Assembly (NCBI GenBank): GCA_963666285.1
Contig: OY762711.1
Origin: Sedimentisphaerales bacterium
GTDB taxonomy: Bacteria > Planctomycetota > Phycisphaerae > Sedimentisphaerales > SM23-30
DNA: 64,000 bases
Direction: 5' to 3' (one strand)
Within the stretch, counting starts at the first letter, position 1; every line of letters begins with the position of its first letter. Positions 1 through 31,700 of the stretch are shown here, one piece after another. A program made the translations under genes and the position numbers. The notes below the pieces were generated by a model. That model was not told the origin of the DNA. It searched no databases and worked only from the letters and a program-made list of their open reading frames with translations.

Positions 1-2
1 AT

Positions 3-1697: not shown

Positions 1698-1790
1698 ACT
1701 CCAAAAATACACTTTTTTATTCAAAAACTGACTGATAATGACGGTTTCTTCTATTTTTTTGCCTTTTTAACCGCTTTTATGACGCCAGTA

Positions 1791-1820
1791 TTGCATTGAT
1801 TAGTACAAAAAAGGTATAAT
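1791..1820 (+). promoter_or_regulatory. Putative sigma70 promoter TTGCAT-N18-TATAAT
   Basis: TTGCAT 1791-1796 and TATAAT 1815-1820, about 50 bp upstream of the 1872 ORF. Confidence 0.45.
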
Positions 1821-1871
1821 ATATCATTATCTAAATCTAGTTTATATATGAATTGTGAATTGTGTTGAATA

Positions 1872-3785: not shown

Positions 3786-3797
3786 AACCACAATTCT

Positions 3798-3826
3798 GGG
3801 ATACAGGGCTCTGAACCTGTATTCCC
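3798..3826. terminator. Hairpin between convergent genes
   Basis: gggatacagg-N8-cctgtattccc directly after the 3785 stop. Confidence 0.5.
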
Positions 3827-3886
3827 GGATATCAGTTAGTCGTAAGGCAATTTTTCCCATATGCCTTATGCCTGTTTATCTTCTCA

Positions 3887-4693: not shown

Positions 4694-4745
4694 CTCTCTG
4701 ATCATCTGATAGCCATTTATCAAAAAATCTTCAGTATAATTTTCA

Positions 4746-5414
4746 TCAATATTCCGGCACTTCAATCTCAACCCGCCTGAGTTCAAATGACAGATCCACT
4801 TCCTGTCCCGTCTCCGGCACATATTTGCCAATTATTTCGGTGGTATATGTCCAGATATCATTTGCGATCAAGGCCCTTTCCCTCATCGGCTGAAATTCAC
4901 AATTTTCTGCCATTTTCAATAACTTACCAGCTTCGTCGTTTTCAACCAGCCAGAATACATCTTCGCCAACACAATAAGATTTACGCACCAGGCACATACA
5001 TGCATTAACAGGATCTCCAAGGATATTCATCTGGCCAAAACCATAGTCTGGCGGACCAAATTCCTCTATATATTTATATTGACCATTCACATTATCCAGA
5101 AATGCCAGCTCTGTTCGAAGTTCGGCCATTTTCCCCTTTGATATATGACCCTGGTAATATGGCGGGCCCGCTTCAATTTTATTACCCGACCAGATAAATG
5201 TACCGTCATGCCTGATCAGGTACATAACTTTTACCGTCACGGTATGGCCTCCATTACCAAATACCAGGATGAACGGCTTTTCAAATGTCTCACCGTCAGA
5301 TGTTACCGTATAACTCCACAACTTTTTCGCTGGCTCTGTCTGACACTTATCCGTTTCAGACCTCTGACAGCCGCTGATGATCAAACAAATTATTACACAA
5401 CTTAAATATCTCAT
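4746..5414 (-). CDS. Hypothetical lipoprotein
   Basis: MRYLSCVIICLIISGC lipobox-like N-terminus; no recognised domain. Confidence 0.6.
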   Translation of the reverse strand: MRYLSCVIICLIISGCQRSETDKCQTEPAKKLWSYTVTSDGETFEKPFILVFGNGGHTVTVKVMYLIRHDGTFIWSGNKIEAGPPYYQGHISKGKMAELRTELAFLDNVNGQYKYIEEFGPPDYGFGQMNILGDPVNACMCLVRKSYCVGEDVFWLVENDEAGKLLKMAENCEFQPMRERALIANDIWTYTTEIIGKYVPETGQEVDLSFELRRVEIEVPEY

Positions 5415-5700
5415 AACTGTCCACCGCACATCTTTCATTCTAATAACTCTATGTGACAAAATTAGTACTATTAATATAGGTGACCTCTGGAAATTGCTTT
5501 TGATGCGATAGTTTAAGATTTTGGTTGCTGACAAGGAACATAAGATCGTGCATATTGGGCTATATTCACTGTTATATGTGACGCATGTCAGCAGGCAAAA
5601 GAAAAACTAGTCGCTCAAAATGAATTTTCAGAGTTGCCTATATATCTAGCCATTGAAATCAAACCCGCCTCTGGCAAACACCTCCCCTACAGCACGCTCA

Positions 5701-6045
5701 CTACTGCCTGACCTCTTGTATAACTACCGCTGTCCCTTTACCATGAGCCATAATCAGAGATTTGTTCTTTGAACCGATATTATCAAAGTCCAGGCTAAAA
5801 CCAATTACCGCATTGGCACCCATATGGGCCGCATTAAATTGTATCTCAGTCAAAACTTCTGTTTCCATCTCACTCATTACCTCCTGATAACTTTCAGATC
5901 GACCTCCAAAGAAATCTCGAAACGCGGTAAAGAAATCTCGAATCACATTTACCGCCCGCACATTTCGTGAAGTAACCAAACCTTTATACTCAATAATTGT
6001 AGCGTTTTCAATTATCGGCGTTGTCAAAATTGGTATCTGTTTCAT
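5701..6045 (-). CDS. YbjQ/UPF0145 family protein
   Basis: ILTTP..I.EY.GLV, RDFFGGRS.SY, GANAVIG...D, GTAV motifs. Confidence 0.9.
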   Translation of the reverse strand: MKQIPILTTPIIENATIIEYKGLVTSRNVRAVNVIRDFFTAFRDFFGGRSESYQEVMSEMETEVLTEIQFNAAHMGANAVIGFSLDFDNIGSKNKSLIMAHGKGTAVVIQEVRQ

Positions 6046-6081
6046 TACATTTTCCTTTCTTCTTCTAAAATTATATAAAGC

Positions 6082-6450
6082 TCTTCTATTATTTTATCAC
6101 AAACGAAACGAGTCACCTTATAATTATTGGTACTTATCGCAGCCTTGTATTTTTCAGTTCTTCTTAATTCTCAATTCTTATTTTTAATTTAAAGCATTCC
6201 CTTCATGGCCAGGTAATATTCTTTGCGAGCTCTGCGGCCTCTGCGAGCAACAGTATTTTTTTCGTATTGTTTTTTAATAACGTCCATAAAATATTACAAT
6301 ATATAATTGCAACAATTATAAAAGAGCCAACATATGCGTCAGCTTTTAAAATAAGGTCCAGTACCGTACGGTGCAGAACACCTCAACTCTCCCATTTTCC
6401 CTCTTACCTTTTACCTCTCCATCCTCTCTTCTAACTTCTAACTCTTCAAT
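6082..6450 (-). repeat. Composite intergenic repeat (family A), copy 1
   Basis: 6082-6265 is a near-identical direct repeat of 8628-8818. 6340-6450 (heptamer run plus hairpin) is homologous, inverted, to 48640-48708 joined to 50123-50160. Confidence 0.85.
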
Positions 6451-6453
6451 CTC

Positions 6454-7476
6454 TTACTTCATAATTTCTTCCCAGCTCATCCCGCATGTATCTTCATAAT
6501 AGCAGCGAAAGGCTTCTTCGTCCCAACCATCAGAACACTTCAACACAATTTGCCGAGCCACATCCAACATCATTTCCCGATCTTTTTCTATATTGAAAAA
6601 CTGACAAGACAAAAATTTGACATTTAATGCATAAAAGTTATCCGGATCGCCCTCAGGTATTGTGTCAAATATCACCCCGGCTGCAGCAATCTGCCCATCT
6701 ACACACAACGTTTCTCCCATCATTTCCAGCACGTCAACATCGTCAGGCTTTACCTTCAGCAATATACCGCATATTTTTAACGCCTCTTCTTCTTCATCGA
6801 TATCATAATAAAGTACCTCAGCTTTTTGTTTCAGCAAATCATAATTATCAGGATTGCCTTCAAGTTGCTCATCTAAACGACGAATAATTGCTACAGGGTC
6901 ATAAGTTATATTCTCCTTCTCTTGCCGGGCACATTCATTTCCCGACTCTATCGCCAAAACCTTATCAAAACATTCAAGAGCTCCCTCCTTATCATCCAGC
7001 ATGTTCAACAGCTTCGCTTTTGCATTTAGGGCACTAACACTTTCAGGCTTATTTTTCAAGATCCGGTCATAACATTCCAGGGCGTTCCCATGTCGTTCCA
7101 TATCTTGAAAAAAATCACCTTTACAGAACAAGGCATTATAATTGTTCGGATCTTTTATAAGAGCATTATCATAATACCCAATAGCTGTATCCTCTTGATG
7201 ATTTAACCTGAAATATTCTCCTATTCGCCACAGGATATAATCATCACAGGTCTCAATCCCCAGTAGCATCTCTTCGTATTTATCATACTCTCTATCACGA
7301 AAATATAACAGCTCAGCTTCAAAAAACTGCAAATAGTCACTATTGCCGTTAGCCTCAGCTAATTTAACACCTAGCTCCAACAGCTTTATACCATCAGCAT
7401 TACCATTACAGTCATTCACCAGGTAGCTGATATAATTATATGTTTCCTTAAGTTTTCCTGTTGTTTTATCACTCAT
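6454..7476 (-). CDS. Tetratricopeptide repeat protein
   Basis: Repeated A..YD.AL..DP.N..AL..KG / ALECFDKVLAI units. Confidence 0.85.
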   Translation of the reverse strand: MSDKTTGKLKETYNYISYLVNDCNGNADGIKLLELGVKLAEANGNSDYLQFFEAELLYFRDREYDKYEEMLLGIETCDDYILWRIGEYFRLNHQEDTAIGYYDNALIKDPNNYNALFCKGDFFQDMERHGNALECYDRILKNKPESVSALNAKAKLLNMLDDKEGALECFDKVLAIESGNECARQEKENITYDPVAIIRRLDEQLEGNPDNYDLLKQKAEVLYYDIDEEEEALKICGILLKVKPDDVDVLEMMGETLCVDGQIAAAGVIFDTIPEGDPDNFYALNVKFLSCQFFNIEKDREMMLDVARQIVLKCSDGWDEEAFRCYYEDTCGMSWEEIMK

Positions 7477-7997
7477 TATTCAATCCAGATCTTGATGATA
7501 TAAAATTAAATGGTACCGCTCTTAATATACTATTTCATTTTTACTCGTACTGCTACCCTTTATATTCTTATTGCCATATCATTTTAGTCATCATAAATAT
7601 ATATCAAATTAAAACTTTTTCAAAAGAATAAACTTTTGCCTCAGCTGAAATAATCAGTATCCTGAAGAACATCGGGAGACATCGACACGCCTTCACTGAT
7701 ATGCCTTTTCAGTAGGCCCGGCACATTTTCCAGTCATCTATACTGTTTGCTCTTCTTCATTGTATCGATCATTATAATAGTATGTTTTTAACACTTCATT
7801 ATAGGCATAAATCAGCTCGTGCCGATTAACACTAAATTGTAAAAATAATCTATATATGTCCGCCCTTTCCACAAAAAAACAGCTGAGAAAACCTCACTAT
7901 TTACTTAATAACGCACTTTTTCCCTCTTCTAACTTGCAACTGCTATTTCCTAATTTATAACCCTGGTTTGAAACAGGACACCATCCAAAATCATGAT

Positions 7998-8552
7998 TCA
8001 ATCACTATAAACGAAAACATATCCAAATATACCATTATCTTCAACAAATTCTGAAAGATCACCAAAGACAATTAACTCTTGATCGTTATCATTTTGTAAA
8101 ACATAAAAAGTATAATCACGTTTTTTATATGGCAATTCTATTTGCAAAGAAATAGTTCCATCCTTTTTTGTTGCTTGATAAATCAAATTAAAAGACTTCT
8201 TGTGTAATGTAATATCCCATTGGTCAGTCACAACTTCTTCAGTACCAGGAAACTCAGGTTCGGATGGAACATGATAAAACACTTCTTTTCTAAACTGTGA
8301 ACTTGCCCATGACTTTTCAAAATTCCAAATATCAAAATATCCACAATTAGAAATTGGTTGTATCATCCCTCGAAACTTTCCATATGGAATCTCATAGGCT
8401 TTTATTGTTGCTGTTGTATGCTCTGTTAAAGCTTTAACGTTAACTTCAGGATATGAATTAGGCTTATATTGACATTTTTGATTAAACACCAGAGTACAAA
8501 CTATTACTATAATGCAAACTATCGCTAAAATACTAACTATTTTGGTATGCAT
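7998..8552 (-). CDS. Hypothetical membrane-anchored protein
   Basis: 184-aa AT-rich ORF with an N-terminal hydrophobic helix and gaaagg RBS. Confidence 0.6.
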   Translation of the reverse strand: MHTKIVSILAIVCIIVIVCTLVFNQKCQYKPNSYPEVNVKALTEHTTATIKAYEIPYGKFRGMIQPISNCGYFDIWNFEKSWASSQFRKEVFYHVPSEPEFPGTEEVVTDQWDITLHKKSFNLIYQATKKDGTISLQIELPYKKRDYTFYVLQNDNDQELIVFGDLSEFVEDNGIFGYVFVYSD

Positions 8553-8627
8553 TAGTGACTTACCTTTCTATCTTTTAAACAAATAAATGATTAATAATTC
8601 ATATTTCTTCTCATCCACGTAATCAGT

Positions 8628-9353
8628 TCTTCTATTATTTTATCACAAACGAAACGAGTCACCTTATAATTATTGGCACTTATCCGTAGCCGTGGTTTTT
8701 AATGTCAATTATTTTTTTAATTTTTAATTTTGAATTCTTAATTTAATGCTTTCCCTTCATGGCCAGGTAATATTCTTTGCGACCTCTGCGGCCTCTGCGA
8801 GCAACAGTATTTTTTCGTGTTCTTTCGTGAATTTTCGTGGTTGACAATCTTTTTCAGAATTCTGAATTTAAATATGCGACAGCTTTAAAATAAGTTGTGA
8901 GCGACAGCGAATTATTCCTGATGTCAACGTACATCAGGACACCTCCTTTACAATTTTTATTTTACCCTTTACACTTTGATGCCGCTTCGCGGTATCTGGT
9001 CTGCCCAGCAGCTAAAAACAGGTCGAAAGCCTCAATGTAAATTTCCGCCGTTATAGCTCCGCGGCCCGTAGCGCACCCGCCGTTGGCCTGCCGCACTACC
9101 GCCGCATACTCTCCGTTTGTATTCCGTGATACCACAAGAGCTCTTCTCACCGCCGCGCCAATCCACAGCTCCTCCGCAAGCCGCCGTGGCCCGCGGCCCG
9201 GTCTCCGTCACTCGCCGCTGGCCGACTCAGCCGGTTTCAGCTCTTCTTCCCGCCGCGCTAGCGCCGCGGCCCGCCGTTTATACTCCGTTATCCGCCCGCG
9301 AATATTCCGCAGGTCGTCGCGGTTCCTCCGTTTCGATCTATGGCCGTTCGTAC
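8628..9353 (-). repeat. Composite intergenic repeat, copy 2, including the phased RCGG array (about 9040-9353) and the empty IS110 target (8822-8840)
   Basis: Inverted copy of 12521-13018 + 14589-14711 + 16126-16176. Confidence 0.9.
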
Positions 9354-9444
9354 AAAAAAATACAATTATAAACCACACTCCAAAAGCTTTGATCGCCACA
9401 TCCGCTTTTGGTAGCACCAAAATCTAATCCGTTACTCATTTCAA

Positions 9445-11508
9445 CTATTCGGCAGGAACAAATATCCTCGGATTTGCCAGCAAAGTTTCAGCGGCAAAAG
9501 CCATCATCGCCAGTATCAGCAAAGGCACAAAAAGGTCAAATCTTGCAGTACGCAAAAATGCCAGTTTGCTATAGTCGGTGTACTGGTCAATAGTAGCTAT
9601 ACTATGAGCTATCCCGCCAAAAAGTTCGATACTGGTAGTACCATCAGGCATATAATCAAATCGCCCTTCATCGCTATCAGAACTAAATGCCACGGCATAA
9701 CGTCCTTTATCACAATCAATTAGCAATACCGCAGGCCTAACCGGCGAGACAAAACCCAGATAGTCGCCTGTATAGTCAACAGTATCACCGGCGATAGATA
9801 ACGCATGGATATTACCGGCAAAGATATTCACCGGCAGTTCCTGACCGGCCGCCAGGTGGATCACATGTTTGTCCAACGCATCTAAGTTACTGCTGTCATC
9901 AGGTTTAACAACAACCATATTCTGTGCCATAACCACACTCAGCGGCTGCTTGGGCAGGCTGCTCCAGCGGGTGTCAAAAGCCATCCCCAGCACATAAACA
10001 TTGCCTTTGCCGACCTTCCGGCGTGACATGACAATATCCTTATATCCTGCTCCTAAAAGGGTTTCTGTTCCGCTGGTAAGCTTGAGCTTATAGCCCTGCC
10101 AGATGGTCATATCCTCAACGTTTATCTGCCTGGAACCAAAGACTTTATACCAGAACTCACTCTTACGGTCCATCACTTCCAGCCGCCTGCCCTGGCTCTC
10201 GGCAAACCGCTGCTGAACTTCTGCACCCATAAAATCAGGCAGTACTACTTCACTGCCACGCTCGCTGACTGCCGGAACTGCAACCAGGTTGCCGCCATCG
10301 TTTACATAGCTTTCAAGCCAGCCGGGGTTAGTCTTGTCCAATGCTGTAACCGACTGCCAGGTAAGTACTAACATCTCAGGCTTTGACTCATTTACATACT
10401 CATAAACCCTGCCGACCGCACGGAAGGTTGTACCAATTCCGGTAAAAGATGCATCACCAAGCGGCGAAACTGCCAGTGGTAATAAACCATACTCATTCGG
10501 CGAACCGGCAAAAACTACGTTCGCCGGTGACCCGCAGCTTACTACTGCCATGCCGTAACCATCGGCATTAAAGCTGTCACCCTCAATGTGGGCCGACCAT
10601 GACCGAAACCCGCTTTCACCCGGCGGCAGCTGCATCGTTACCATCCGGCTCGACCCCTGCTGCATATCGACATCCCGACTCTCAACTGAGCCGGTACCAT
10701 CATCTAATACCAGGGTAACATTTCCGTCATAATCGCTTGTATTTTCCAGGTTTATGTTCACTGTCGCCGGGTGGCCGGGCAGTATCATCTCCGGCGGATA
10801 GCTAATTGACCGGATAGCAACATTTGCCCCGTTCTGGTCCTGCGGCATGATCTTGTGCACCTGTATCGATACATCTTTGGCACCACCGATAGTCCCGGCA
10901 TATTCAAACTGATGACGCTGCAGGTCGGTAAAAATATGAATTGTACCGCCGGTCTCCAGTAGATCAATAGATTCCCTAACTGCTTTTAACAAATCACCTT
11001 GTGAATATGTTGGCAATACCTGGTCTATAGCTTCCAGGATAAGATTGCGGTCTGTCACTATGGTATCGGGCAGCTTAGAAATTGATGGATCAACAACAAC
11101 AGTCCGCAGCCCAAAGCTCCCTTTGTCTATTGTTCCCAGCAGTTTACCGGCAGCATCCTTAGCCATATCCAGGCAGGTGATATGCCCACCCTGCTCAATT
11201 CGCAGCATAGAGGCAGAGTTATCAATAACCACGACCATCGAAGTAACACCACTTTTGGAAGTACCGCCAAGATTGAATGACGGTCGGCTGAGAGCAAGCA
11301 GCAGAAAGGCCAATACCAACATACGCATAAGTAAGACCAGTAACTGTCGTAACTTATGACGTGCGGTCATCTTGGGATCGGTCTTGTGAAAGAACATAAG
11401 AGTCGGAAACTGGACGTACCTTTTCTTTTGCTTGAGCAAAAAATGGAATACAATCGGCAGCCCGGCCAGCGGCAGCAGCATAAGAAAGAAACCCGATGAA
11501 AATATCAT
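9445..11508 (-). CDS. BatA N-terminal / vWA domain membrane protein
   Basis: LPIVFHFL..K...V.FPTL.F and LLMR...LA.L.LALSRP (BatA); VIDNSASM and IFTDLQ (MIDAS); C-terminal TM helix. Confidence 0.85.
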   Translation of the reverse strand: MIFSSGFFLMLLPLAGLPIVFHFLLKQKKRYVQFPTLMFFHKTDPKMTARHKLRQLLVLLMRMLVLAFLLLALSRPSFNLGGTSKSGVTSMVVVIDNSASMLRIEQGGHITCLDMAKDAAGKLLGTIDKGSFGLRTVVVDPSISKLPDTIVTDRNLILEAIDQVLPTYSQGDLLKAVRESIDLLETGGTIHIFTDLQRHQFEYAGTIGGAKDVSIQVHKIMPQDQNGANVAIRSISYPPEMILPGHPATVNINLENTSDYDGNVTLVLDDGTGSVESRDVDMQQGSSRMVTMQLPPGESGFRSWSAHIEGDSFNADGYGMAVVSCGSPANVVFAGSPNEYGLLPLAVSPLGDASFTGIGTTFRAVGRVYEYVNESKPEMLVLTWQSVTALDKTNPGWLESYVNDGGNLVAVPAVSERGSEVVLPDFMGAEVQQRFAESQGRRLEVMDRKSEFWYKVFGSRQINVEDMTIWQGYKLKLTSGTETLLGAGYKDIVMSRRKVGKGNVYVLGMAFDTRWSSLPKQPLSVVMAQNMVVVKPDDSSNLDALDKHVIHLAAGQELPVNIFAGNIHALSIAGDTVDYTGDYLGFVSPVRPAVLLIDCDKGRYAVAFSSDSDEGRFDYMPDGTTSIELFGGIAHSIATIDQYTDYSKLAFLRTARFDLFVPLLILAMMAFAAETLLANPRIFVPAE

Positions 11509-12419
11509 ACTGCCCTGCTCCTTTCGAGCAGCACATCATATATCTCACGACTGGTTTCAGCCAGAACATACTGGCCGCGAATATTCATAACCCCTTGCCG
11601 AAGCTCGTTTAAGTAGCTGTGCACCTGGTCCTGATAGCTTTCCTTGATCTGGTCGAGATCTACCAGTACCTTACCACCTGTCTCCATACATTCGATATCG
11701 GCCATGGATACGCCATCAGAAAACGCATCGGAAGGCAGCCGCAGTTCGGCCGGGTCGAGTACATGATAGATACTAAGCTCTTTGCCCTCATGGTAGAGGT
11801 GTCTCATGCCGGTGAGGATACTGTTCGGCTCTTCGAGCAGGTCGGAGATAACAACTATAAGTGCTTTACCTTTAACCAGTTCCGCGGTTTTATGCAGTAC
11901 CGATTCCAGGTCACTTTTGCCGCCGGGCTGAACGGCATCGAGATTCTGTAGAATCGGTTTAAGCCCCATATAGTTTGATGCCGGGCCGACATGATCGATA
12001 ATCTTGTTATCAAAAGTAATAAGTGAAACGGAATCGCCCTGCCGAGTCATGGCATATGCCATGCCGGCGGCGAGATAGCAGCTGTACTCAAGTTTGGTAA
12101 GCCCGCCTATGCCGCTGTTATGGTAGGCCATACTATTGGAAGTATCGAGCAGGATATGACATCTGATACTAACATCCTCGTGATACTGGCGGATAACGTA
12201 CCGGTCGCTTCGAGCGTAAACCGGCCAGTCAATACGACTTACGGGATCACCGGGAATGTATTCGCGATACTCGGCAAACTCAACCGACGAGCCGAAAGCG
12301 TTGGAATGGTGCAGACCCTGATAGTGGCCGTCCATCGGCCGCCTTACGGTATACTCCAGGGCATGAAGCCGTTCGGCCATAGTCGCGGGCAGATATTTGT
12401 AGCTGTTTTCTGATGCCAT
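11505..12419 (-). CDS. DUF58 family vWA-like protein
   Basis: G.H.S...GSSVEFAEYREY.PGD....IDW, LLDTSNSM, VVISDL. Start placed at the ATG at 12419; 4-bp overlap with the BatA gene. Confidence 0.9.
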   Translation of the reverse strand: MASENSYKYLPATMAERLHALEYTVRRPMDGHYQGLHHSNAFGSSVEFAEYREYIPGDPVSRIDWPVYARSDRYVIRQYHEDVSIRCHILLDTSNSMAYHNSGIGGLTKLEYSCYLAAGMAYAMTRQGDSVSLITFDNKIIDHVGPASNYMGLKPILQNLDAVQPGGKSDLESVLHKTAELVKGKALIVVISDLLEEPNSILTGMRHLYHEGKELSIYHVLDPAELRLPSDAFSDGVSMADIECMETGGKVLVDLDQIKESYQDQVHSYLNELRQGVMNIRGQYVLAETSREIYDVLLERSRAV

Positions 12420-12520
12420 ATAGTTTCCTATTTTAGCTTTACGATTGCCAAGTATCAATGACTAATAAAGTGAATCGAAGGTGTGATGTTCGGTATGTTG
12501 GTTTGTAATATGTTTTATCG

Positions 12521-13018
12521 GTACGAACGGTCACAGATCGAAACGGAGTAGCCGCGACGGCCTGCGGAATATTCGCGGGCGGATAACGGAGCATAAACGG
12601 CGGGCCGCGGCGCTAGCGCGGCGGGAAGAAGAGCTGAAACCGGCTGAGTCGGCCAGTGGCGTTTAACGGAGACCGGGCGGCGGGCCACGGCGGCTTACGG
12701 CGGGCCAGCGGATTGGCGCGGCGGTGAGAAGAGCTCTTGTGGTATCACGGAATACAAACGGAGAGTATGCGGCGGTAGTGCGGCAGGCCAACGGCGGTAG
12801 TGCGGCGGGCTGCGGAGCTATAACGGCGGAAATTTACATTGAGGCTTTCGGCCTGTTTTTGGGTGTTGGGCAGACCAGATGCCGCGAAGCGGCTTTTAAA
12901 GTGTAAAGGGTAAAATAAAAAGTGTAAAGGAGGTGTTCGCCTGGCGGCTCACAACTTATTTTAAAGCTTTCGCATATTTAAATTCAGAATTATGAAAAAG
13001 ATTGTCAACCACGAAAAT
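12521..13018 (+). repeat. Composite repeat, copy 3, left part, with phased RCGG array (about 12527-12830)
   Basis: Reverse complement of 8831-9353, roughly 85-90% identical by eye. Confidence 0.9.
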
Positions 13019-13137
13019 ACAATGAAAGCCAGAATATTCCTGTAGCATGGCTTGTGTTATAATACACAATAATTTTAGCACGAGCTGTCACAGGGACGCT
13101 CAAATATTTAACCAATTTTATACGGAGTATTCTGGCT

Positions 13138-14184
13138 ATGAAGACTATTATGTCAATTGATTTAGGAAAATTCAAGAGTGTAGTTTGTTTTTATGAGGTA
13201 AAAAGCTGTAAGGCTATATATAAGTCGTTTAAGACTAACCCTCAAGAGCTTCATGACCTGGCAGTATCTCACCCTGCTGATCTTATTGTATTTGAGGCTT
13301 GTGATATCATAGGCTGGATTTGTGACCTTTTTGACACCCTGGAATTAAAATATGAAGTGGCAAATACTAATACCGGCGAATGGTCTGGCAGAAAATTGAA
13401 GAAGAAAACAGATAAAAAGGATGCATTTTGGCTGGCCAAGCGTGCTGCTTTAGGAGATTTATCAACTGTCTATGTTCCTAAAAAGGAAATTCGAGAGAAA
13501 CGATCTTTAATTAATTATCGCCAGAGCCTTACAGAACGGATAACTCAGGTAAAAAATACTATTCGTTCTTTATTAAATGCCCAGGCGTATTCGTTGCCGT
13601 CAGGCAGAAAGTGCTGGTCTAAGCAGAATCTGGAACAGTTAAGAAGTATGGCTATGCCAATGGATAAAGTTAAACCAGATGAGCTCTGGAAAGGCAATCT
13701 ATGGAGCGAGCTTATATTACTGGAACAATTAACAGACGCTTTGCAAGTAGTTGAAGATAAACTGGAAGAGTTAAATAGTACTGATGAAAAGGTAAAACTA
13801 TTACAGACTGTTCCCGGAGTTGGCCCACGTCTGGCAGAGGCAGTTGCAGCTTATATTGATGATCCACATAGATTTAAGAATTGCAAACAAGTTGGCAGCT
13901 ATATTGGTATGACACCGCGTCAGTACCAATCAGGTAATACAGACCGTCATGGGCGGATAAGTAAATATGGCAATAGGTTATTGCGAGCATTACTTGTTGA
14001 GGTTTGCTGGCTGGGTTTGCGTTGGAATCCATGGATAAAAGAAACATACGAAAGAATAAAGAGGGGAAGTAAAACTCGTGCAAAAATAGCGATAGTAGCT
14101 ACAGCCCGACGGTTGTTCGTACGATTGTGGGCGATGATGCGAGATGGGACAAGTTGGCAGATGCCTGAATTGCAAAGTGTTTGA
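13138..14184 (+). CDS. IS110 family transposase/recombinase
   Basis: DEDD RuvC-like domain (IDLGK, FEAC, KTDKKDA); Tnp domain VPGVG and GMTPRQYQSG (catalytic Ser); AIVATARRL. Confidence 0.95.
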   Translation: MKTIMSIDLGKFKSVVCFYEVKSCKAIYKSFKTNPQELHDLAVSHPADLIVFEACDIIGWICDLFDTLELKYEVANTNTGEWSGRKLKKKTDKKDAFWLAKRAALGDLSTVYVPKKEIREKRSLINYRQSLTERITQVKNTIRSLLNAQAYSLPSGRKCWSKQNLEQLRSMAMPMDKVKPDELWKGNLWSELILLEQLTDALQVVEDKLEELNSTDEKVKLLQTVPGVGPRLAEAVAAYIDDPHRFKNCKQVGSYIGMTPRQYQSGNTDRHGRISKYGNRLLRALLVEVCWLGLRWNPWIKETYERIKRGSKTRAKIAIVATARRLFVRLWAMMRDGTSWQMPELQSV

Positions 14185-14229
14185 TACCAATATAAGTAAA
14201 ATATAAATATTACCTATGATTTTGCCCGA

Positions 14230-14380
14230 TTGAAATCGATACGGAACCTTGGTCGTGCATTTGGGTTTTGAACCTGACACGAAAATTAAGCCGTATCGCA
14301 ATATATATAATGGAACCATGGCGTAAAATACAGCCTCGGACACTCCGGATAGAAAGATGAAACAATCAGGTAAATAATGA
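14230..14380 (+). ncRNA. Putative bridge/seek RNA of the IS110-family element (RNA ends uncertain)
   Basis: Stem cgatacgg (14237-14244)/ccgtatcg (14291-14298) encloses tcgtgcattt (14253-14262) and cacgaaaatt (14278-14287), which match the two strands of the insertion target. Confidence 0.75.
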
Positions 14381-14582
14381 TTCGCTACGCGAAAATTGTT
14401 TTAAATAGGTTTATCGCATAAGGTCAAAAAGCAAAAAACGAGGCGGTGTAAAACCGCCCCGGCTTCTTGACAACTTGCAACGCTCGGGTTGCTCCTCAGC
14501 AGAGCCCTATCCTTTGCAAGATAAAGGAATTATAGCAAAAATGAATAAAATTAGAAAATTAATGTTGCATTCTGGCTTCATA

Positions 14583-14711
14583 GAAAATTCACGAAAGAAC
14601 ACGAAAAAAACACTGTTGCTCGCAGAGGCCGCAGAGCTCGCAAAGAATATTATTTGGCCATGAATGGAAAACTTTAAATTAAGAATTCAAAATTAAGAAT
14701 TAAGAAGAACT
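14583..14711 (+). repeat. Composite repeat, copy 3, middle part (9-mer and 7-mer modules) between IS110 and IS3
   Basis: Matches the reverse complement of 8715-8835 and of 6155-6265. Confidence 0.85.
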
Positions 14712-16123
14712 TGTCTGGTCCTGTGATAAGTTGTCACATTATAGATTTAATGTTTTAACAAATAACAGGAGACAACAATGTTGGTAAGTAAACGAACTTA
14801 TAATCGCTACAGCGAAGCCTTTAAATTACAGGTGGTAAATGATCTTGAATCTGGTAAGCTAAGCAGTATTTATGAGGCTAATTCCCGCTATGGGATTTCT
14901 GGTACAACAACAGTAAAGAGTTGGCTAAGAAAATATGGCCGTAACCATTTGATACCAAAGGTGATACGCGTGGAAAAACTAGATGAACAAGATCATGTAA
15001 AGAAGTTAGAATCAGAGATTAAGCAGCTTAAAGAAGCGTTAGCAGACAGCCATATAGAGAATATTGTAAGTGAAGCCAGGTTTCAGGTTATTTGTAAAGA
15101 ATACGGGCTGGATCCCGAGGAGTATAAAAAAAAAGTCGATACCAAACGGTTCAACAAGCGTCCGAGGCAACCGTTGAAAAGAAAGAGGAAAAAATAGCGA
15201 TAACTTCCTTATGCAAAGCTGTTGGCATGAGTCGTCAGAATTATTATAAATCACATAAAGTTCGGCGCAGGCGGCACTATGAAAAAGACCTGATAATATC
15301 TTTGGCCAGGCTGGAAAGATCATTGCAGCCTGAGATGGGTTGCAGAAAGGTTTTGAAGCGTATAAAGCCCAAACTGGCAAAAGCCGGTATTAGTATAGGG
15401 CGAGATAGATTTTATGAAACGATGTCAGAAGCAGATATGTTGATAGAGCGTAAAAAGCGAAGTGTGACAACGACAGACAGTCGTCATAACTTTAAGACTT
15501 ATAAGAATATACTGAAAGATGAAGAGCTTACAGGAGCCAATCAGGCCCTGGTAAGTGATATAACGTACATATATACAGATGAAGGATTTATGTATCTGTC
15601 GTTGATAATGGATGCATTTAGTCGCAAGATAGTTGGCTATGACTGTAGTGATAGTTTGGAAGCAGAAGGTTGTTTGCGTGCATTAACAAAGGCGATAAAG
15701 CAATTGCCCAAAGGTAGTAATACGATACATCATTCAGATCGTGGCAGTCAGTATTGCTGCCATAGATATATAGATAAGCTTAAAAGAAATGGGCTGCGAG
15801 TTAGTATGACCGAAGATAATCATTGTTATGAGAATGCCCAGGCCGAGAGGTTAAACGGTATATTGAAGCACGAGTATGGATTGAAGAATACGTTTAAGAA
15901 AAAAGCTCATGTTCATGCTGCGGTTAAACAGGCGATAGAACTGTATAATACCTGTCGTCCACATTTTGCTTTGGGATATCGTGTGCCTGAGGAAGTGCAT
16001 ATGGCGGCGTGATATATTCCTCCGTTCCGGTCGCCCTTCGGGCTCCCTGCACTACGGAATATATCATCAAAAAACAATAGTAAATAGAAACGGAAAGTGA
16101 CAACTTTAAATCAGGACTTGACA
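14712..16123 (+). mobile_element. IS3-family element, copy 1
   Basis: TG..CA ends; IRs TGTCTGGTCCTGTGATAAGTTGTCAC / GTGACAACTTTAAATCAGGACTTGACA; apparent 2-bp CT duplication relative to the empty allele (reverse complement of 6146-6165). Confidence 0.95.
14778..16012 (+). CDS. IS3 transposase OrfA (14778-15197) and OrfB (to 16012), joined by a -1 programmed frameshift
   Basis: HTH OrfA; A9G slippery run at 15126-15135 with the -1 frame open into OrfB; DDE motifs SDITY, HHSDRGSQY, ENAQAER. Confidence 0.92.
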
Positions 16124-16280
16124 CTGAAAAATACAAGACTGCGATAAGTGCCAATAATTATAAGGTGGCTCGTTTCAGCCTTCGCTAAAGCTATGGTTCA
16201 ACAAGACCGCACGTGATTAATAATTTTGAACCACTGATGCACGCGGATGGACACCGATAAGAAAATGTTTAGAGATAACT
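16124..16280 (+). repeat. Composite repeat, copy 3, right part
   Basis: Near-identical to 54950-55084; the first 50 bp match the reverse complement of 6105-6157. Confidence 0.85.
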
Positions 16281-16350
16281 AACAAATTAAATGCAGTTGA
16301 ACTTCAAACATAGAACAAAAATAATAGTAGTATTAGAGAATGCTGCTTTT

Positions 16351-17912
16351 GGGAGTGTTCATTTGACTGTGTAAATGGTACTATTGGTATAGGCAGAATA
16401 CACTTCTGTCTTGAAATTTACACATTTCTATATTAACTTGTATATTATCGTTCTGAAGGATAGGGCTCTGCTGAAGAGCAACCTGAGCGTCAGAATGATG
16501 CCGAGACAAAAGGCTCTGGAAGAACAAACATTTTCCACGAGCCTTTTATTTTGTTTTGGCTGATAAGCGAAAAACTTATAAAAACAGCTCCGCCAAAGGC
16601 GGCACCTCTTTTATCTTTCAGGCATTCGATCGCCGAACTTGATAGCGAACTGGTTTATCGCCTGATTCCAGCATCTAATTGGCATTGTCCACTTTTTAGA
16701 TATGTTTTCAAGAGCCAAATAGAATATCTTTAAGATCGATGCTTCGCTAGGGAATGCACCTTTAGTTTTGATAACTTTTCTCAGAGAACGATTCAGAGAT
16801 TCAATTGCATTGGTGGTATAAATCGCTTTACGGATTTCTGGCGGATAATCAAAAAACGGTATGATGTTTTGCCAGTTATTACGCCAGCTTTGGCTAACCA
16901 TAGGGTACTTATCATCCCATTTTTGAGCAAATTCGTCCAGAGCCATTTCAGCTTCCTGCTCAGTGGCTGCGGTATAGATTAGCTTTAAATCAGCACATAG
17001 CTGTTTGCGATCTTTCCAGTTAACAAACCGCACTGAATTACGAACCATATGTACAATACATAACTGTACCTGGGTTTTAGGGAAAACGGCTTCTATAGCT
17101 TCTGGAAAGCCTTTTAAGCCATCTATGCAAGTGATGAATATATCTTTAACACCTCGATTTTGAAGCTCTGTAATGATATTAAGCCAGAATTTTGCTCCTT
17201 CAGTTTTAGCTATCCAGATACCCAATAATTCCTTCATGCCATCCATATTTACACCGAGAGCAAGATAAACTGACAAATTGGATACTTTGCCGTCCTGGCG
17301 ACATTTAACAACAATACAGTCAAGGAATACTATTGGATAAACTTCATCCAAAACTCGATTTTGCCAGGATTTAACTTCCTGCATTATACTCTCGGTTGCC
17401 TGGCTGATAAGACCTTCAGAGACATCAACGTGATACATATCCAGAAGACATGCCTGAATATCACGGACACTCATACCACGACCATACATGGCTATGATCT
17501 TATCATTAAAACCTTCAAAATACTTCTCGCCCTTGGGGATAAGCTTAGGTTCAAAGGTGCTGTTGCGGTCACGGGGAGGATTAAGTTCAACTTCGTCAGA
17601 ATCGATTACAACAGACTTTTTACCATTGCCATTACGACTATTGCCACTGTTATTGCCCTTAGGGTCATGCTTGCTGTAGCCCAGATGGTCGCTCATCTCT
17701 GCTTCTAAAGCTCGTTCAACTATTCGTTTTTTGAGCTCAGAAAATAAACCTGATTCTCCCCAAAACTCCTCCGGAGTATTGTAACCTCCTAGAAGCTCAT
17801 CAATTAACTCATCTTTACGTTTGTCTTGTGCCGATCGTTTAGCCATAGTTCTTTACCTCACATTATAGGTTAACAAATCTATGACCATTTACACAGTTTA
17901 ATTTACACCCTC
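16351..17912 (-). mobile_element. IS256-family element
   Basis: IRs GGGAGTGTTCATTTGACTGTGTAAATGGT and GAGGGTGTAAATTAAACTGTGTAAATGGT (rc); 8-bp TSD CTGCTTTT at 16343-16350 and 17913-17920. Confidence 0.95.
16611..17846 (-). CDS. IS256 family transposase
   Basis: NSRNG, PRDRNSTFEP, YPIVFLD, DGLKGFPEAI, QLCIVH, YTTNAIES. Confidence 0.97.
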   Translation of the reverse strand: MAKRSAQDKRKDELIDELLGGYNTPEEFWGESGLFSELKKRIVERALEAEMSDHLGYSKHDPKGNNSGNSRNGNGKKSVVIDSDEVELNPPRDRNSTFEPKLIPKGEKYFEGFNDKIIAMYGRGMSVRDIQACLLDMYHVDVSEGLISQATESIMQEVKSWQNRVLDEVYPIVFLDCIVVKCRQDGKVSNLSVYLALGVNMDGMKELLGIWIAKTEGAKFWLNIITELQNRGVKDIFITCIDGLKGFPEAIEAVFPKTQVQLCIVHMVRNSVRFVNWKDRKQLCADLKLIYTAATEQEAEMALDEFAQKWDDKYPMVSQSWRNNWQNIIPFFDYPPEIRKAIYTTNAIESLNRSLRKVIKTKGAFPSEASILKIFYLALENISKKWTMPIRCWNQAINQFAIKFGDRMPER

Positions 17913-18317
17913 CTGCTTTTCACTTATAAATATCTTCATTATCCTAAAATCCCTTAATAATAGATTTCCATTTTAAAATACATAGTTGTTCCAGATTCAG
18001 TTTAGTCAGAATTTACAAAATATCTCCCTGAAATTCATTCCAAGATCTATTAACCAGACAATCAGACAACCAGACAACCTGTCAATAACATTTTCCCAGC
18101 CTTAACTGCCAAATATCTCCTTTTCAAATCTATTCATTAAATTACTCCCCAACATTTTCACATATCCACTATTCATCCAATTCATCATACCACACCTCCA
18201 GCAATACCTGTAGCATATCCAACACCTCAATCAGCTTCTCATCTATAATCCAAATCAGGCATACAGCCCCAAAAATGGAAGGCAAGATATAACATGAATA
18301 ATAAGCCTTCAAAAACC

Positions 18318-18755
18318 TTACCACCACGGACGATAGTGGCTTGAGAGTCTTTTTACCGAATAGTAATCATTTTCACAAGTAAAAACAAAAACATCAATAT
18401 CACTTGGTAGATCTGAAACACAATAGACTTTAATCAATATTTTATTATTTCTTGTAAGTTCTTCAAACACGTTATCATATTTTGATAAATCTAACTCAAT
18501 ATTTGTGCATTTTTGAGGGTAAATGTTTTCGTTTAATTTATCTTTTACTTTTAGAAGTATTTCATCTTCTGAATAAAGACTTATGTTATGAATAAAAACA
18601 AAAGCCAAACCAACTGTTTTAAATTTGATTACTGGTTGTTTTTTATTAACAATATATGCTTCTACTCCATGGTAAGGAATTATTACAAGATAAATAATAG
18701 TCAAAGAAACAATAAAAACAACAAGAAGCGGTATAATTATTTTTTTTACTTTCAT
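18318..18755 (-). CDS. Hypothetical membrane-anchored protein (candidate orphan immunity protein)
   Basis: Very AT-rich, N-terminal TM helix, downstream of an Rhs tip module. Confidence 0.55.
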   Translation of the reverse strand: MKVKKIIIPLLVVFIVSLTIIYLVIIPYHGVEAYIVNKKQPVIKFKTVGLAFVFIHNISLYSEDEILLKVKDKLNENIYPQKCTNIELDLSKYDNVFEELTRNNKILIKVYCVSDLPSDIDVFVFTCENDYYSVKRLSSHYRPWW

Positions 18756-19137
18756 TATTTATCCAAATTGGTCTATGTTGACTGGACTGTTCCTTGAAAT
18801 TTAGCTCAGAATATATTAAACAGGTTACCTGGGTATCTTGTCAATCACATTTTTTTGAGTCTGATACGATAAATATCAGGCTGAATAGTCTAACATTGCT
18901 CCTCTATGCCCCTAACTCGCCACCCCCTGAAGTGGCAGAATAATGCAACATTAACAGAATATTGACATCCCGCACAGTACTGGATGTCAATATTTTGCAA
19001 AAGCCTTATTACTTTTCTAGTCTTTATCGCCGGTTTTTAGATTTCTTTAGCCAGAAGCTATAACGCATAGGACTTATCATCTTGGGACTCCAAGAGCCAA
19101 ATATGGTTGGTTGGGGGAGAAGTTATAACTTATTTCA

Positions 19138-19701
19138 TCAATCACATTTTCCTAATTTATCTAAACGAGAGATTAAAGTGGCAAAGTTACTATAACACAT
19201 AAGGTATATAAAAGATAAATAGTAATCTTTATTATTTGTAGAAATACGATAACCTAACCTTTCTTTAGTTATTTTTTTTATATTGCTGTAATCAATAACT
19301 ATTTCCTTACCACGAAGTAAAATTAGAGAAGTAGACTTAAATATTATTGAATGTCTATGAGAAGCCTTGTTTATTACATAAAATACAAAATAAGGTAACC
19401 AAAATAATATTACATAAAATGAACCGATAAATACCCTGACCATATAACTATCATTATGGCTTGGTAACTTAATTGGAAATAATAAGGCTAATATAAAAAC
19501 AACGATGGAAGAAAGAACCATATATACCAATCCTTTAAATGAAAACATCCATATTTTATGTTTTCGTTGAAACTCATCACAATAGTCAATTTCAAAATTA
19601 CTAATAGCAATTCGTTTTTGTATTTTAAAAAATATAAAATACAAAATAAAGTAAAGTAAAAAAGTTATCAACCAATGTATCCAAAATAATACGTATATCA
19701 T
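19138..19701 (-). CDS. Hypothetical membrane protein (candidate immunity protein)
   Basis: About three TM segments; agagg RBS; starts 18 bp after the Rhs tip stop. Confidence 0.6.
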   Translation of the reverse strand: MIYVLFWIHWLITFLLYFILYFIFFKIQKRIAISNFEIDYCDEFQRKHKIWMFSFKGLVYMVLSSIVVFILALLFPIKLPSHNDSYMVRVFIGSFYVILFWLPYFVFYVINKASHRHSIIFKSTSLILLRGKEIVIDYSNIKKITKERLGYRISTNNKDYYLSFIYLMCYSNFATLISRLDKLGKCD

Positions 19702-19719
19702 AAAATACCTCTATGTGAA

Positions 19720-20181
19720 TTAATACCACCACGGTTTGTTTATTTGCCTATTTTTTTCTTTTTTATCCTCTTCAAAACCAGGAAAGATATACCCAAATAA
19801 ATCTCCTAAGGCACCACCCAAATAATTACCGCCTACGGGTGCAAGTGTACAAGCTGCGGTTCCAGCCCCACGTGCTAACATCGCATTTTGAGTATCAGAT
19901 TCCATCCATGACATTGCAGCTCCATTTAAGAAAGTCGCACCTATTGCACCAATAATTGATATCAAAGGATCTTTTGCAATTCCAGATACAAATCCACTAA
20001 CAAAACCAACAGCAAATGCAAGGACCCGATTGTTTTCATTTTTAACACTTCCGGCATTTAAAATACCATTTACAATACCTCCAACTAACCCTCTAATGAA
20101 AATTATTGCGGCTTGAGTTAAACGACCATCCATGTCAATATTATTAACCGGGTCATTGAGGCAGTAGAGGTACCGGTGAAA
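19720..20181 (-). pseudogene. Orphan Rhs C-terminal toxin module
   Basis: The frame upstream of ORF 20133 reads FHRYLYCLNDPVNNIDMDG (Rhs core-end motif), preceded by TGA. The tip is Gly/Ala-rich and hydrophobic. Confidence 0.8.
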
Positions 20182-20285
20182 TCAGGGATAACTTTACTTG
20201 TGAAAGAACCATAAAGCAGGTTGTAATTATAGTTCCCTGATGTTAAAATGCCAGAAGAAATTAATATTTTAGGCCAGTTGTAGAA

Positions 20286-22235
20286 ATGCAAAAAGTGAGA
20301 AGTAAAATGAAAATGAAATTACGAATAATGATATTGACTTTGGCTGGAATGGCGGCGGCGGTTTGGGCGACAGGTGCGGCTGACCCGTACCGGGTGCCGG
20401 GCGAGGTTGTGACATTTGATGTCTGGAAGTATTTTGACGATGCCGGGATAGAGGGTACAGAGCAGCGGGCAGATATGCTGTATTTTTTAACGAGCCTGCA
20501 GGGGATAGTCAACCGCGAGCAGCCGAGACTGTACCTGTTTGTATCGCTGGCATTGTTTGATATCGAGATCGGTCATCACGATGACCCGGACTATAAGAGT
20601 AAGCCGGTAACGGAAATAGACAGATACTGGTTCGAGCATTTTCGCCAGGAAGGATATTTTGATGACTGTTCGGTGCAGGAGGCGGCCGGGCTGAAAGAGC
20701 TGGTTGAATATTTCAGGTCGGATATAAGCGGGCTGGTATTGTGGGATACGAAAGTACCGGCTTCTGTTAACGTGGCAATGATGGCGGCGGGCTGTGAGGG
20801 ATTGCTGCCGGTTAGTAAGGATTTGGGCGGCGGTAAGCTGTGGAAGAGGCTGGAGGGAGAATGCCCGGAACTGAAAGTTAAGCTGGACCTGGCAGGAAAG
20901 TTTGACGGGAAGAAGGATGTGGAGATAGATGGGAAGAAGTTTCCTACGACCGGCAGTGCCAAGAATGATGCGTACCTGTATGCGATCGAAAAATATTTAC
21001 GGCCGGGGCTGAGCAACCCATATAAGATGTGGTTTAACTGCGATGCGAGTATGCTGGGTAAGTTCAGGAGTTTTTATAACAGGAACTGCTATGGTTTTCT
21101 GGGTGATAAAAATGAGCTGCAGCAGAACGGGATGTATAATGCCGACTACTGGGTGAGTCAGAAGGCGTTTATCTTTGATCTGCTGCCGTGGGCTGACCAT
21201 ACGCCGGCAGACGACCCGGACCAGCCGCTGGGTACAGATAATAAGACATGGCACGATATACTGGAGATATCATACAATCAGCGGGAAGGCAAGTTCGGCG
21301 TTGCGGGCGGCTTTGTGCCGTGGTGGATAAAGTATACATCACATACAGGTGAAAAACACCCTGATGTGGCGACGGAATGGGAGTTTGTGGCATTGCTGAC
21401 ATCGTATAACATGGGTAATGATGCGGATGCCGCGTTTGGAATTGCTAACAGTTCGTTCTTTCAGTATATGCCAAAGGTCAGCAAAGAGGAAGCAAAGTTC
21501 AGAGACAGCGAGCCAATGGCATATGACGAGGAAAAGACATATGTTGCGGTACTGATGCTGGACTATGACGGCTCGGCGTGGCTGAACCAGATGGTGCCAA
21601 CAATCTATAATGACCCGATGAGGGGGAAGATGGTACTGAACTGGTGCCTGAACCCGATCCTGAACGAGCGAATTCCACATGTTTTCAGATATATTTATAA
21701 GAACAGGACGGCGAATGATTGCCTGGGCCTTTCGGGTGATGGAGCAGCGTATATTCAGCCGGACAGTTTAGTTAACCGTAAAGGCCGGATATCAGAAAGC
21801 GGAGTTCCCTATTATGAAAGCTTTGCCAAGGAGTTGAACGAGCGATACGGGGTAGAATATAATGTGTTTTATATCGATGATAAATTCGGCCTGGAATGGG
21901 CGGAGATGGCAGCGAGGATAACACCTAAAGGATTTGGCTTTAACTGCCCTATCGAAAGTCAGCTGGTGAATGGTACGCCGGTGAATTTTGTCGAGATGTT
22001 TCATATCTCGCAGGTAAAAGGGCTTGGAAGAAGGCTGGAGGATCTGTATAAAAATTCGGTTGAAGGAAAGTATTCGGAAGCTCAGCTGCATTCGTTGCGA
22101 TGTATACTGATACCGCCGCATAAGATATATTCCATCGTGGAAAGGCTGGATAAGAAATACCCGGCAGCGAAGGTAGAGTTTGTCGATATACCGAATTATT
22201 ACAGGCTGCTGAAATATAAGCTTGAAAATAAATAA
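20286..22235 (+). CDS. Secreted GxGYxYP-family putative glycoside hydrolase (start may be 20307 or 20313)
   Basis: Signal peptide; SLQGIVNREQPRLY; YVAVLMLDYD; GDGAAYIQP variant of the GxGYxYP motif. Confidence 0.7.
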   Translation: MQKVRSKMKMKLRIMILTLAGMAAAVWATGAADPYRVPGEVVTFDVWKYFDDAGIEGTEQRADMLYFLTSLQGIVNREQPRLYLFVSLALFDIEIGHHDDPDYKSKPVTEIDRYWFEHFRQEGYFDDCSVQEAAGLKELVEYFRSDISGLVLWDTKVPASVNVAMMAAGCEGLLPVSKDLGGGKLWKRLEGECPELKVKLDLAGKFDGKKDVEIDGKKFPTTGSAKNDAYLYAIEKYLRPGLSNPYKMWFNCDASMLGKFRSFYNRNCYGFLGDKNELQQNGMYNADYWVSQKAFIFDLLPWADHTPADDPDQPLGTDNKTWHDILEISYNQREGKFGVAGGFVPWWIKYTSHTGEKHPDVATEWEFVALLTSYNMGNDADAAFGIANSSFFQYMPKVSKEEAKFRDSEPMAYDEEKTYVAVLMLDYDGSAWLNQMVPTIYNDPMRGKMVLNWCLNPILNERIPHVFRYIYKNRTANDCLGLSGDGAAYIQPDSLVNRKGRISESGVPYYESFAKELNERYGVEYNVFYIDDKFGLEWAEMAARITPKGFGFNCPIESQLVNGTPVNFVEMFHISQVKGLGRRLEDLYKNSVEGKYSEAQLHSLRCILIPPHKIYSIVERLDKKYPAAKVEFVDIPNYYRLLKYKLENK

Positions 22236-22257
22236 ACACAAACAGTGTAATATGCAC

Positions 22258-22292
22258 AAAAAAACGCCCGGCAGGAATATACCGGGCGTTTT
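22258..22292. terminator. Bidirectional intrinsic terminator
   Basis: aaaaaaacgcccgg-N10-ccgggcgtttt between convergent genes. Confidence 0.8.
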
Positions 22293-22317
22293 GTAAATTT
22301 TGATTTATTGGCGGGCT

Positions 22318-23634: not shown

Positions 23635-23661
23635 AAATATACCTCATATTATATTGATATT

Positions 23662-24747: not shown

Positions 24748-24809
24748 TTGAAAACATTGTCCTCAAAGCAAATACTTCTCCAGCTTGAATGTATTACATA
24801 ATACAAATA

Positions 24810-25658: not shown

Positions 25659-25764
25659 TAAATAGTATCCTCTTAAGCCTCATATTGAATTTCCAATGAT
25701 TCACTAGAAAGTAATACCTGATAAATAATATTTCCAGCCGTATTATTTTCAAACTATTAACCAA

Positions 25765-31697: not shown

Positions 31698-31700
31698 TCC

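Follow-up and report, generated by a model that had tools for sequence, protein, structure and literature searches.

Helically phased RCGG arrays mark the starts of long, one-way strand-skewed tracts in a Sedimentisphaerales chromosome

Helically phased RCGG arrays mark the starts of long, one-way tracts of strand skew in the genome of a Sedimentisphaerales bacterium (G000: a 6.15-Mb chromosome, C1, and three 65-kb contigs, C2–C4). Three such arrays lie in the window, the 64,000-nucleotide stretch of DNA from which this analysis started. At 51 of the 57 arrays called on the chromosome, G at four-fold sites, read on the array strand, is more frequent ahead of the array than behind it (mean gain +0.097, against a shifted-position null with an s.d. 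of 0.0085 and a maximum of 0.028 in 3000), and these sequences are therefore likely start sites for extra, error-prone DNA copying. We lean towards reading the array as a helically phased DNA element, likely bound by protein, from which such synthesis would begin.

The array in the window (12544..12830, + strand) is built from the unit RCGG(C/A)G, repeated every 10–11 nt in three blocks (12565-12625, 12667-12725 and 12748-12830). A first-pass annotation, made from the sequence alone, had singled it out as a non-coding, strand-biased array with a period of one DNA turn, and that description stands: all 20 CGG starts it listed were recovered in place, each preceded by A or G, and RCGG occurs in 12521-12830 34 times on the + strand and twice on the − strand. 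The periodicity, for which comparison with shuffled sequence had been set as the test beforehand, is pronounced, with 20 RCGG motifs having a partner 10 or 11 nt further on against a shuffle mean of 1.27; 20 phased pairs were reached in none of 3000 dinucleotide shuffles of 12521-12830 and in none of 20000 random placings of 34 motifs, which gave 7.2 pairs on average. Blocks 1 and 2 do end in the common 20-mer that had been noticed, GCGCGGCGG(GA/TG)AGAAGAGCT (12616-12635 and 12716-12735, 100 bp apart), and the array region is, as described, far richer in GC (0.66) than its flanks (0.33 and 0.35). It is also non-coding, since, in 10/10 family copies, stops interrupt each of the six frames over the 300 nt that precede the anchor motif. 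A decayed coding repeat, the alternative named at the outset, is rejected on these stops together with the finding that none of the five overlapping ORFs has a Pfam match (E ≤ 0.1). Rfam returned zero matches across the window, and the fold of the array is no better than that of shuffles on either strand (z −0.39 and +1.64). The '-10-like box' fared less well: its sequence is present at both window copies, but it is absent from the other family copies, and a promoter scan of the window copy placed no site on the array strand, all three sites found being on the − strand (shuffle mean 1.0).

The second copy, already suspected from the sequence, lies at 9044..9353 on the − strand (92.6% identity), at a spot where a relative's operon runs straight into the next gene. 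The copies at 12521-12830 (+) and 9044-9353 (−) thus both point away from the BatA/vWA gene (9445-11508) and the DUF58 gene (11505-12419) that occupy the − strand between them (9445..12419). Divergent array pairs enclosing 3.3–4.4 kb occur four times in the genome, the BatA/vWA-DUF58 block being one of them. The third array of the window (47837..47902, +), with 7 units and from a different subfamily, heads a 62-kb skewed segment.

How widespread is this element? BLAST with the window array detected 12 loci of its sequence family in G000 (72–100% identity), and a second family, family B, numbers 30 copies, conserved over 330 bp upstream of the array. The total of 57 phased arrays on the chromosome, with none on the three 65-kb contigs, rests on a call of at least five phased pairs per 250 bp, a threshold of our own choosing at which a few loci may be chance. 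Over the 57 loci, units follow one another at 10 nt (161 times) or 11 nt (239 times) and conform to RCGG(C/A)G, CGG being followed by C in 48% and by A in 36% of phased units. Variable positions are rarer in the CGG cores (16/96) than in the linkers (77/244). A five-unit pattern matched 40 times in G000, once in a reversed control and once in 60 relatives, among which BLAST likewise found just two weak 37-nt matches. A wider collection of genome contigs gave 36 pattern matches, all within stretches of 60–78% GC, and none of the motif matches in metagenomes (17) and viruses (9) had an array around it.

The genes behind the arrays are unrelated to one another, and some arrays sit within reading frames, namely those of a ketopantoate reductase, an Fe-S protein and a 4613-aa protein. 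In the ketopantoate reductase gene (G000:C1:1530155-1531174) the RCGG array is in frame and adds about 30 residues, leaving the frame intact; in the 4613-aa ORF (G000:C1:4532902-4546743) an array followed by heptamer repeats lies in frame near the N-terminus and starts a 48-kb tract. One further array, at G000:C1:5745891, is located 3.5 kb from the cumulative-skew minimum that we take as the inferred origin (5742436), from which both dnaA genes (6147.5 kb and 1186 kb) are far removed.

Ahead of the arrays the usual layout runs from the phased blocks through a T-rich spacer and a conserved GGGCRGACCAGA to REP-like modules and on to IS elements and accessory genes. In the window, the spacer extends from the last unit to the conserved motif (12831..12867, +) and holds one terminator-like hairpin (12842-12854; 1 found, 1.1 expected). 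The motif itself, GGGC(A/G)GACCAGA (12868..12879, +), lies 45 nt past the last unit, is common to unrelated subfamilies and trails many of their arrays; in 10/10 copies the register between it and the last block is fixed, with units at -45/-56/-66/-77 from its position. Variable modules start directly after it, in the form of REP-like hairpins and purine-rich heptamers (12880..13030, +) that are shuffled among loci and oriented with the G-rich strand. Genome-wide, 117 heptamer modules run with the tract strand and 4 against it, and 36 lie outside tracts. On the other side, the GGGCAGACCAGA motif of the second copy (8995..9006, −) is followed by REP-like modules to about 8700. Next on the + strand of the window come an IS110-family transposase (13138..14184; 9 genome copies) and an IS3-type element with two ORFs (14712-16030, ORFs 14778..16012; 9 identical copies). 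Of the 18 copies of these two IS families, 16 are found in the 8-kb zones ahead of arrays, which together make up 8% of the chromosome, and AT-rich accessory genes come with them, past the modules. The IS3-type copies are mostly inserted in the REP-like modules just ahead of arrays, a target choice unusual for the family; the IS copies are too young to give a mutation spectrum.

The skew shows at four-fold sites, where G in the window rises from 0.140 behind to 0.318 ahead of the + array and from 0.124 to 0.342 at the − array. The tract ahead of the + array covers 11000..33000 (+; HMM segment, 1-kb bins), and that ahead of the − array, a 38-kb HMM segment, begins at 11000 and leaves the window at its first position (1..11000, −). 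Within 3 kb ahead of arrays, coding-strand four-fold GC skew is +0.25 in co-oriented and −0.37 in opposed genes; of the 57 arrays, 30 are on the leading strand and the other 27 on the lagging one. The enrichment in array-strand G ahead is thus independent of gene orientation and of replichore. At lagging-strand arrays the skew moves from −0.16 behind to +0.29 ahead and regains background by about 35–40 kb, while four-fold GC climbs from 0.36 to 0.43–0.46; the decay distance of tracts is 20–40 kb. Averaged over 33 unpaired intergenic arrays, the signal starts to rise 3–4 kb behind and is highest at the array, then falls across the island and is restored by 5–7 kb. At the array inside the Fe-S protein gene (G000:C1:1426953), four-fold G steps from 0.12 to 0.43, and none of six mosaic motifs occurs within −1.5 to +2.5 kb of it.

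A three-state HMM, whose tract frequencies were set from the regions ahead of arrays and whose boundaries were left free, delineated 101 tracts covering 55% of the chromosome. Tract starts fall within 6 kb of a same-strand array in 32 of 101 cases (null mean 5.6, maximum 13), tract ends near one in 3. The other 69 starts are more than 6 kb from any listed array; 13 of them seem, by our own reading, to be near a weaker array (3–4 pairs). Conversely, an HMM tract is lacking 5 kb ahead of 14 of the 57 arrays and a G gain at 6, and tract strength correlated neither with array size (rho −0.12) nor with the divergence of family-B copies (rho −0.09).

What kind of mutation does the G-rich strand record? 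Compared with background matched for replichore and gene orientation, its four-fold purines are raised by 0.10 to 0.125 in 4/4 classes, and at two-fold sites G/(A+G) changes by +0.05 to +0.14 and C/(C+T) by −0.035 to +0.005. Ordinary replication in G000 leaves a transition asymmetry and an excess of T over A on the leading strand but does not raise purines, which sets the tracts apart from ordinary leading strands. In E. coli defective in mismatch repair, one study found A:T and G:C transitions to favour A and C on the lagging-strand template about 2.4-fold, with transversions favouring the pyrimidine there (10.1101/346874); a second study found the same preference, 2- to 4-fold, for SOS-induced transversions (10.1101/2020.01.15.908301), and the authors of both leave open which strand makes the error. 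Because the lagging-strand template is identical in sequence to the newly made leading strand, the tract strand would resemble the leading strand of error-prone synthesis running from the array, a comparison in which composition reflects net change only. Recent singleton changes in repeats match this signature only partly. The 510 singletons from repeated intergenic contexts show a 1.7-fold excess of A>G over T>C (p 0.008) and non-significant tendencies the same way for C>G, T>A and C>T, but no such tendency for T>G and C>A; the equilibrium that they imply (G 0.18) is not G-rich. A matching lean for A>G, C>G and T>A appears among 117 family-B singletons.

The link between phased sequence and skew recurs in a second species. 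G003, of the same genus (median protein identity 65%), has no RCGG arrays, and its tracts, sampled in 40 stretches of 20 kb, are stronger and longer, with four-fold skew of up to 0.6–0.7 over 100–200 kb around the 208-kb position. It carries 9 copies of a phased element whose sequence is unrelated to the G000 arrays, each at a divergent skew switch; one copy was found via such a switch, and two more lay within stretches already sampled. The element heads REP-like modules, and its consensus has TGT at 11, 11 and 10 nt (ATGTACAT, palindromic) and AATYG at 11, 10 and 10 nt, a phasing read from the alignment that an exact 4-mer chain scan did not flag. Around the nine copies skew is positive ahead and negative behind in 34/36 five-kb bins each, so the G003 sites are divergent; the switch lies 0.5–2 kb behind the element, and at the one site examined no second element accompanied the backward arm. 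At 2 of the 9 elements, one of them corresponding to the 47837 array of the window, the genes directly behind are orthologs of those directly behind a G000 array, which argues that the site was kept while the motif changed. The window's main site has neither element nor switch in G003, where the DUF58-BatA genes continue into the next gene within one long tract. Six to ten kb ahead of the 713.7-kb element lies a gene set resembling that of a filamentous phage (L153:10053-14348), including what we take to be a Zot-like ATPase.

Other relatives supply a comparison. In G001, local skew is weak, and relative to their G001 orthologs, over the 400 kb of G001 compared, G000 genes ahead of arrays have more G when co-oriented (0.385 vs 0.214, 6 genes) and more C when opposed (0.364 vs 0.263, 5 genes), whereas 80 distant genes do not differ (G 0.230 vs 0.219). 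G031, from another family, showed no local skew in 20/20 stretches; of five more genomes, viewed in four stretches each, G017 and G020 were suggestive on a sample too small to decide.

What could a phased array do to the DNA ahead of it? Phasing, recurrence at 57 unrelated sites, fixed anatomy, polarity, a tract ahead and a pile-up of IS elements, REP-like modules and accessory genes are what we observe. We propose that a cooperative initiator would cover one face of the array, that the DNA would open or be nicked near the T-rich spacer, and that host enzymes would build a new G-rich strand away from the array, by a run-off fork or by nick-primed strand displacement. Such a strand would evade normal error correction and come to a halt some tens of kb away. 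Over evolutionary time, many rounds of this would build up the skew, and displaced or amplified DNA would promote module shuffling, the spread of arrays and the uptake of foreign genes. On this view, firing would be unidirectional from the polar RCGG motif and bidirectional from the partly palindromic G003 element. Of the two hypotheses in the first-pass annotation, that of a one-face DNA platform is supported at the sequence level, the period being kept over all 57 loci, the register fixed in 10/10 copies, the cores less variable than the linkers, and the period retained with other motifs in a relative; that of a protein-titrating RNA is not, as discussed below. The array is best read as a putative dispersed, lineage-specific counterpart of Bartonella run-off replication. 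A broader view, which we offer tentatively, is that the arrays are self-spreading secondary origins: phased platforms that change in sequence from species to species even as some of their sites stay fixed, and which may fire error-prone run-off synthesis into variable islands, thereby acting as programmed hotspots of mutation and gene exchange and laying multi-origin skew domains over a normal two-replichore chromosome.

The tracts might instead arise from repair, with the array as a polar, Chi-like stop: AddAB arriving from a break ahead would be halted at the array or its bound protein, and the G-rich 3' end would invade the sister and prime forward repair synthesis, which makes the array a restart point, not a programmed origin. 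We regard this as unlikely, if worth serious consideration. G000 has AddAB-type genes (two PF12705 genes, 1165 and 1278 aa) and a special enzyme would be unneeded, and the 3–4 kb of skew behind the array could be explained as the single-stranded tail; yet Chi is read on single-stranded DNA, where helical phase is unneeded. Like the Chi-like motifs described in PMC8022716, the arrays are short, polar, G-rich and lineage-specific, and GCGG is contained in known AddAB motifs given there (AGCGG, GAAGCGG), but that paper has Chi polarised to the leading strand and spread over the core genome, whereas arrays are clustered and phased, border accessory DNA and divide 30 to 27 between leading and lagging strands. 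Single motifs outside tracts are mildly leading-biased (RCGG 11898 vs 9988, AGCGG 1967 vs 1677, about 1.2-fold), and G003 uses AT-rich motifs in an element that lacks GCGG. Transcription could also start at the array and yield long G-rich transcripts or a stable RNA-DNA hybrid, the skew then following from transcription-linked mutation or R-loop-primed replication. The G- and purine-rich array strand, the 330 bp conserved upstream in family B and a gene behind one site orthologous between G000 and G003, presumably NusG-like, would fit, but the window copy has no promoter-like site on the array strand, T and C are enriched on ordinary sense strands relative to antisense ones, contrary to the tract strand, tracts cross genes of both orientations and no fold is conserved, which leaves this account quite unlikely. 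In the repair and the transcription accounts, as in ours, it is the array that determines the polarity of the tract.

Could the arrays be mere passengers, selfish or neutral repeats inserted at, or generated by, skew boundaries of another cause? The onset of skew 3–4 kb behind arrays, the G003 switch 0.5–2 kb behind its element, the arrays without a tract, the many tracts without a listed array and the absence of a dose effect all fit this idea, but arrays start tracts behind unrelated genes and even inside genes, their phase and CGG cores are conserved, and in G003 the window's site, lacking element and switch, has the same genes inside a longer tract; we consider it improbable. The proposal that the array encodes a CsrB-like RNA titrating CsrA or another protein has in its favour the single csrA gene of G000 and the RCGGA form of 10 of the 34 units. 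CsrB/RsmZ-type sRNAs, however, carry many ANGGA motifs with GGA in hairpin loops, whereas only 5 of the 34 units are ANGGA, C rather than A is the commonest base after CGG, the fold is no better than that of shuffles (the z of −0.39 given above) and Rfam has no match; with the tracts, the IS pile-up and the G003 element free of GGA repeats left unexplained, this is a highly improbable reading. Scarcely any credence attaches to inversions or misassembly at inverted repeats as the cause of the skew changes. Arrays are long repeats at which contigs break, and in a survey of about 7000 genomes skew inversions inside a replichore are taken mainly as possible misassembly, which they can signal when found at inverted repeats (PMC7111523). 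Inversion, though, would only flip a replichore skew of ~0.09, whereas tract skew is as high as 0.3 in either replichore orientation, fades with distance and comes with a rise in four-fold GC, as described, and with the replichore AT component retained; a second assembly, G003, has the same pattern, and the divergence of G000 genes from their G001 orthologs is confined to those ahead of arrays (6 + 5 vs 80).

Returning to run-off synthesis as the preferred reading, none of the known families accommodates the array, although several share features with it. Iteron origins, rolling-circle double-strand origins (dso) and oriT sites (for instance the 11-bp bind repeats of pMV158 and the crr octamers of P4) combine phased direct repeats, an AT-rich stretch and a motif in register with polar action, and belong to a replicon with its own initiator. 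Arrays resemble them in their phased repeats, T-rich spacer, conserved motif at fixed distance and polarity, and differ in having cores of 4–6 nt with free linkers and in that none of the initiator families tested was found in G000. The Streptomyces clt/clc repeats, with 8-bp units at an 11-bp period, are bound by TraB, dispersed over the chromosome and linked to DNA mobilisation; the arrays, too, are dispersed chromosomal phased direct repeats, but G000 lacks a TraB-like third FtsK, and we know of no skew tract for clt/clc. REP/BIME sequences are short palindromic repeats. The downstream modules, with their hairpins and 7-mer repeats targeted by IS elements, resemble these and the heptamer repeats of MacGregor (2015; PMC4679880), a paper whose accessible text contains neither the word 'skew' nor planctomycetes; the phased array itself, being neither palindromic nor a 7-mer tandem, is unlike both. 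Closest in proposed logic is the Bartonella run-off origin (Berglund et al. 2009, PMC2697382), a single bidirectional origin of phage descent from which a 461-kb plasticity zone is amplified; as we propose for the arrays, it ties an extra start of chromosomal synthesis to the most plastic part of the genome. It differs in adjoining its own Twinkle-like helicase and in being coupled to a gene transfer agent, whereas G000 arrays have no linked replication gene; G000 in turn has dozens of dispersed one-way sites with a compositional footprint, and 'skew' does not appear in the main text of PMC2697382. Searches of the open literature returned no account of a link between arrays and skew.

Which protein might act at the arrays? 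Profile searches of G000, covering named Pfam families only, detected no MOB_P relaxase (PF03432), Rep_trans protein (PF02486) or IS91 transposase (PF04986), these being the relaxase, Rep and Y2 transposase families covered, and likewise no RecD2/TraI-like helicase, Prim-Pol or GxxExxY protein. A HerA-like search and scans for HUH, helicase and polymerase motifs gave no fitting result. The genome encodes one DnaE, one chromosomal DnaB-domain gene, MutS, Y1 (IS200/RAYT-like) genes and two Y-family polymerases, with no fitting initiator candidate among them. Its FtsK-domain genes number two, one orthologous across the order and one beside WXG100-like genes; the gene at G000:C1:4299786-4304821 (1291 aa), whose small neighbours we take to be WXG100-like, is also present in G001 and G003 and was not found in G031 and G037. 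No phage-derived helicase or primase lies beside the arrays, and a second primase occurs in a recent satellite without arrays. This DUF3987 primase, common to G000 and G003, was considered and rejected: it sits in a 15-kb satellite that is 99% identical between the two genomes, against ~65% for core proteins, and so points to a recent transfer, and that has no phased array. The satellite-like element (L258:1-15208 and L259:683-15897) carries two integrases, the primase, a terminase-small-like gene and cargo that is presumably Hsp20-like and transport ATPase-like. The three phage-like contigs were likewise discarded as a source, as they have no RCGG arrays and their Rep-like genes are without chromosomal homologue.

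In a bacterial chromosome, strand skew is expected to switch once at the origin and once at the terminus, and any additional switch is often attributed to inversion or faulty assembly. In G000, about half of the chromosome lies in local one-way tracts starting at defined phased sequences, and the pattern occurs in two species with unrelated motifs, a warning against judging assemblies in this group by skew alone. The arrays supply exact coordinates and strand with which dispersed secondary origins or repair-restart sites can be tested. They also bear on how mutation and gene uptake are targeted to accessory islands and on the orientation of heptamer/REP mosaics, and they point to a putative, fast-evolving DNA-binding protein.

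Some observations on the wider genome and its read depth accompany these results. In two runs of one sample, where GC differs and depth is not equivalent to copy number, contig depths were 14.5 and 14.2 between the window arrays and 14.9–34.2 ahead of them, a difference that runs in the expected direction. The block 9284-12590 has about half the depth of most flanking contigs, which could reflect GC bias, partial block loss or amplification of the flanks. C2–C4 are three related 65-kb phage-like replicons with Rep-like genes, PEP-CTERM-like cargo and no match to the chromosome; C3 and C4 encode proteins of 4900–5500 aa, and the DnaB of C4 is 65% identical to that of the host. On the chromosome, one prophage is present in two copies (G000:C1:967000-997000 and 2112000-2141000) that are 86–99% identical gene by gene.
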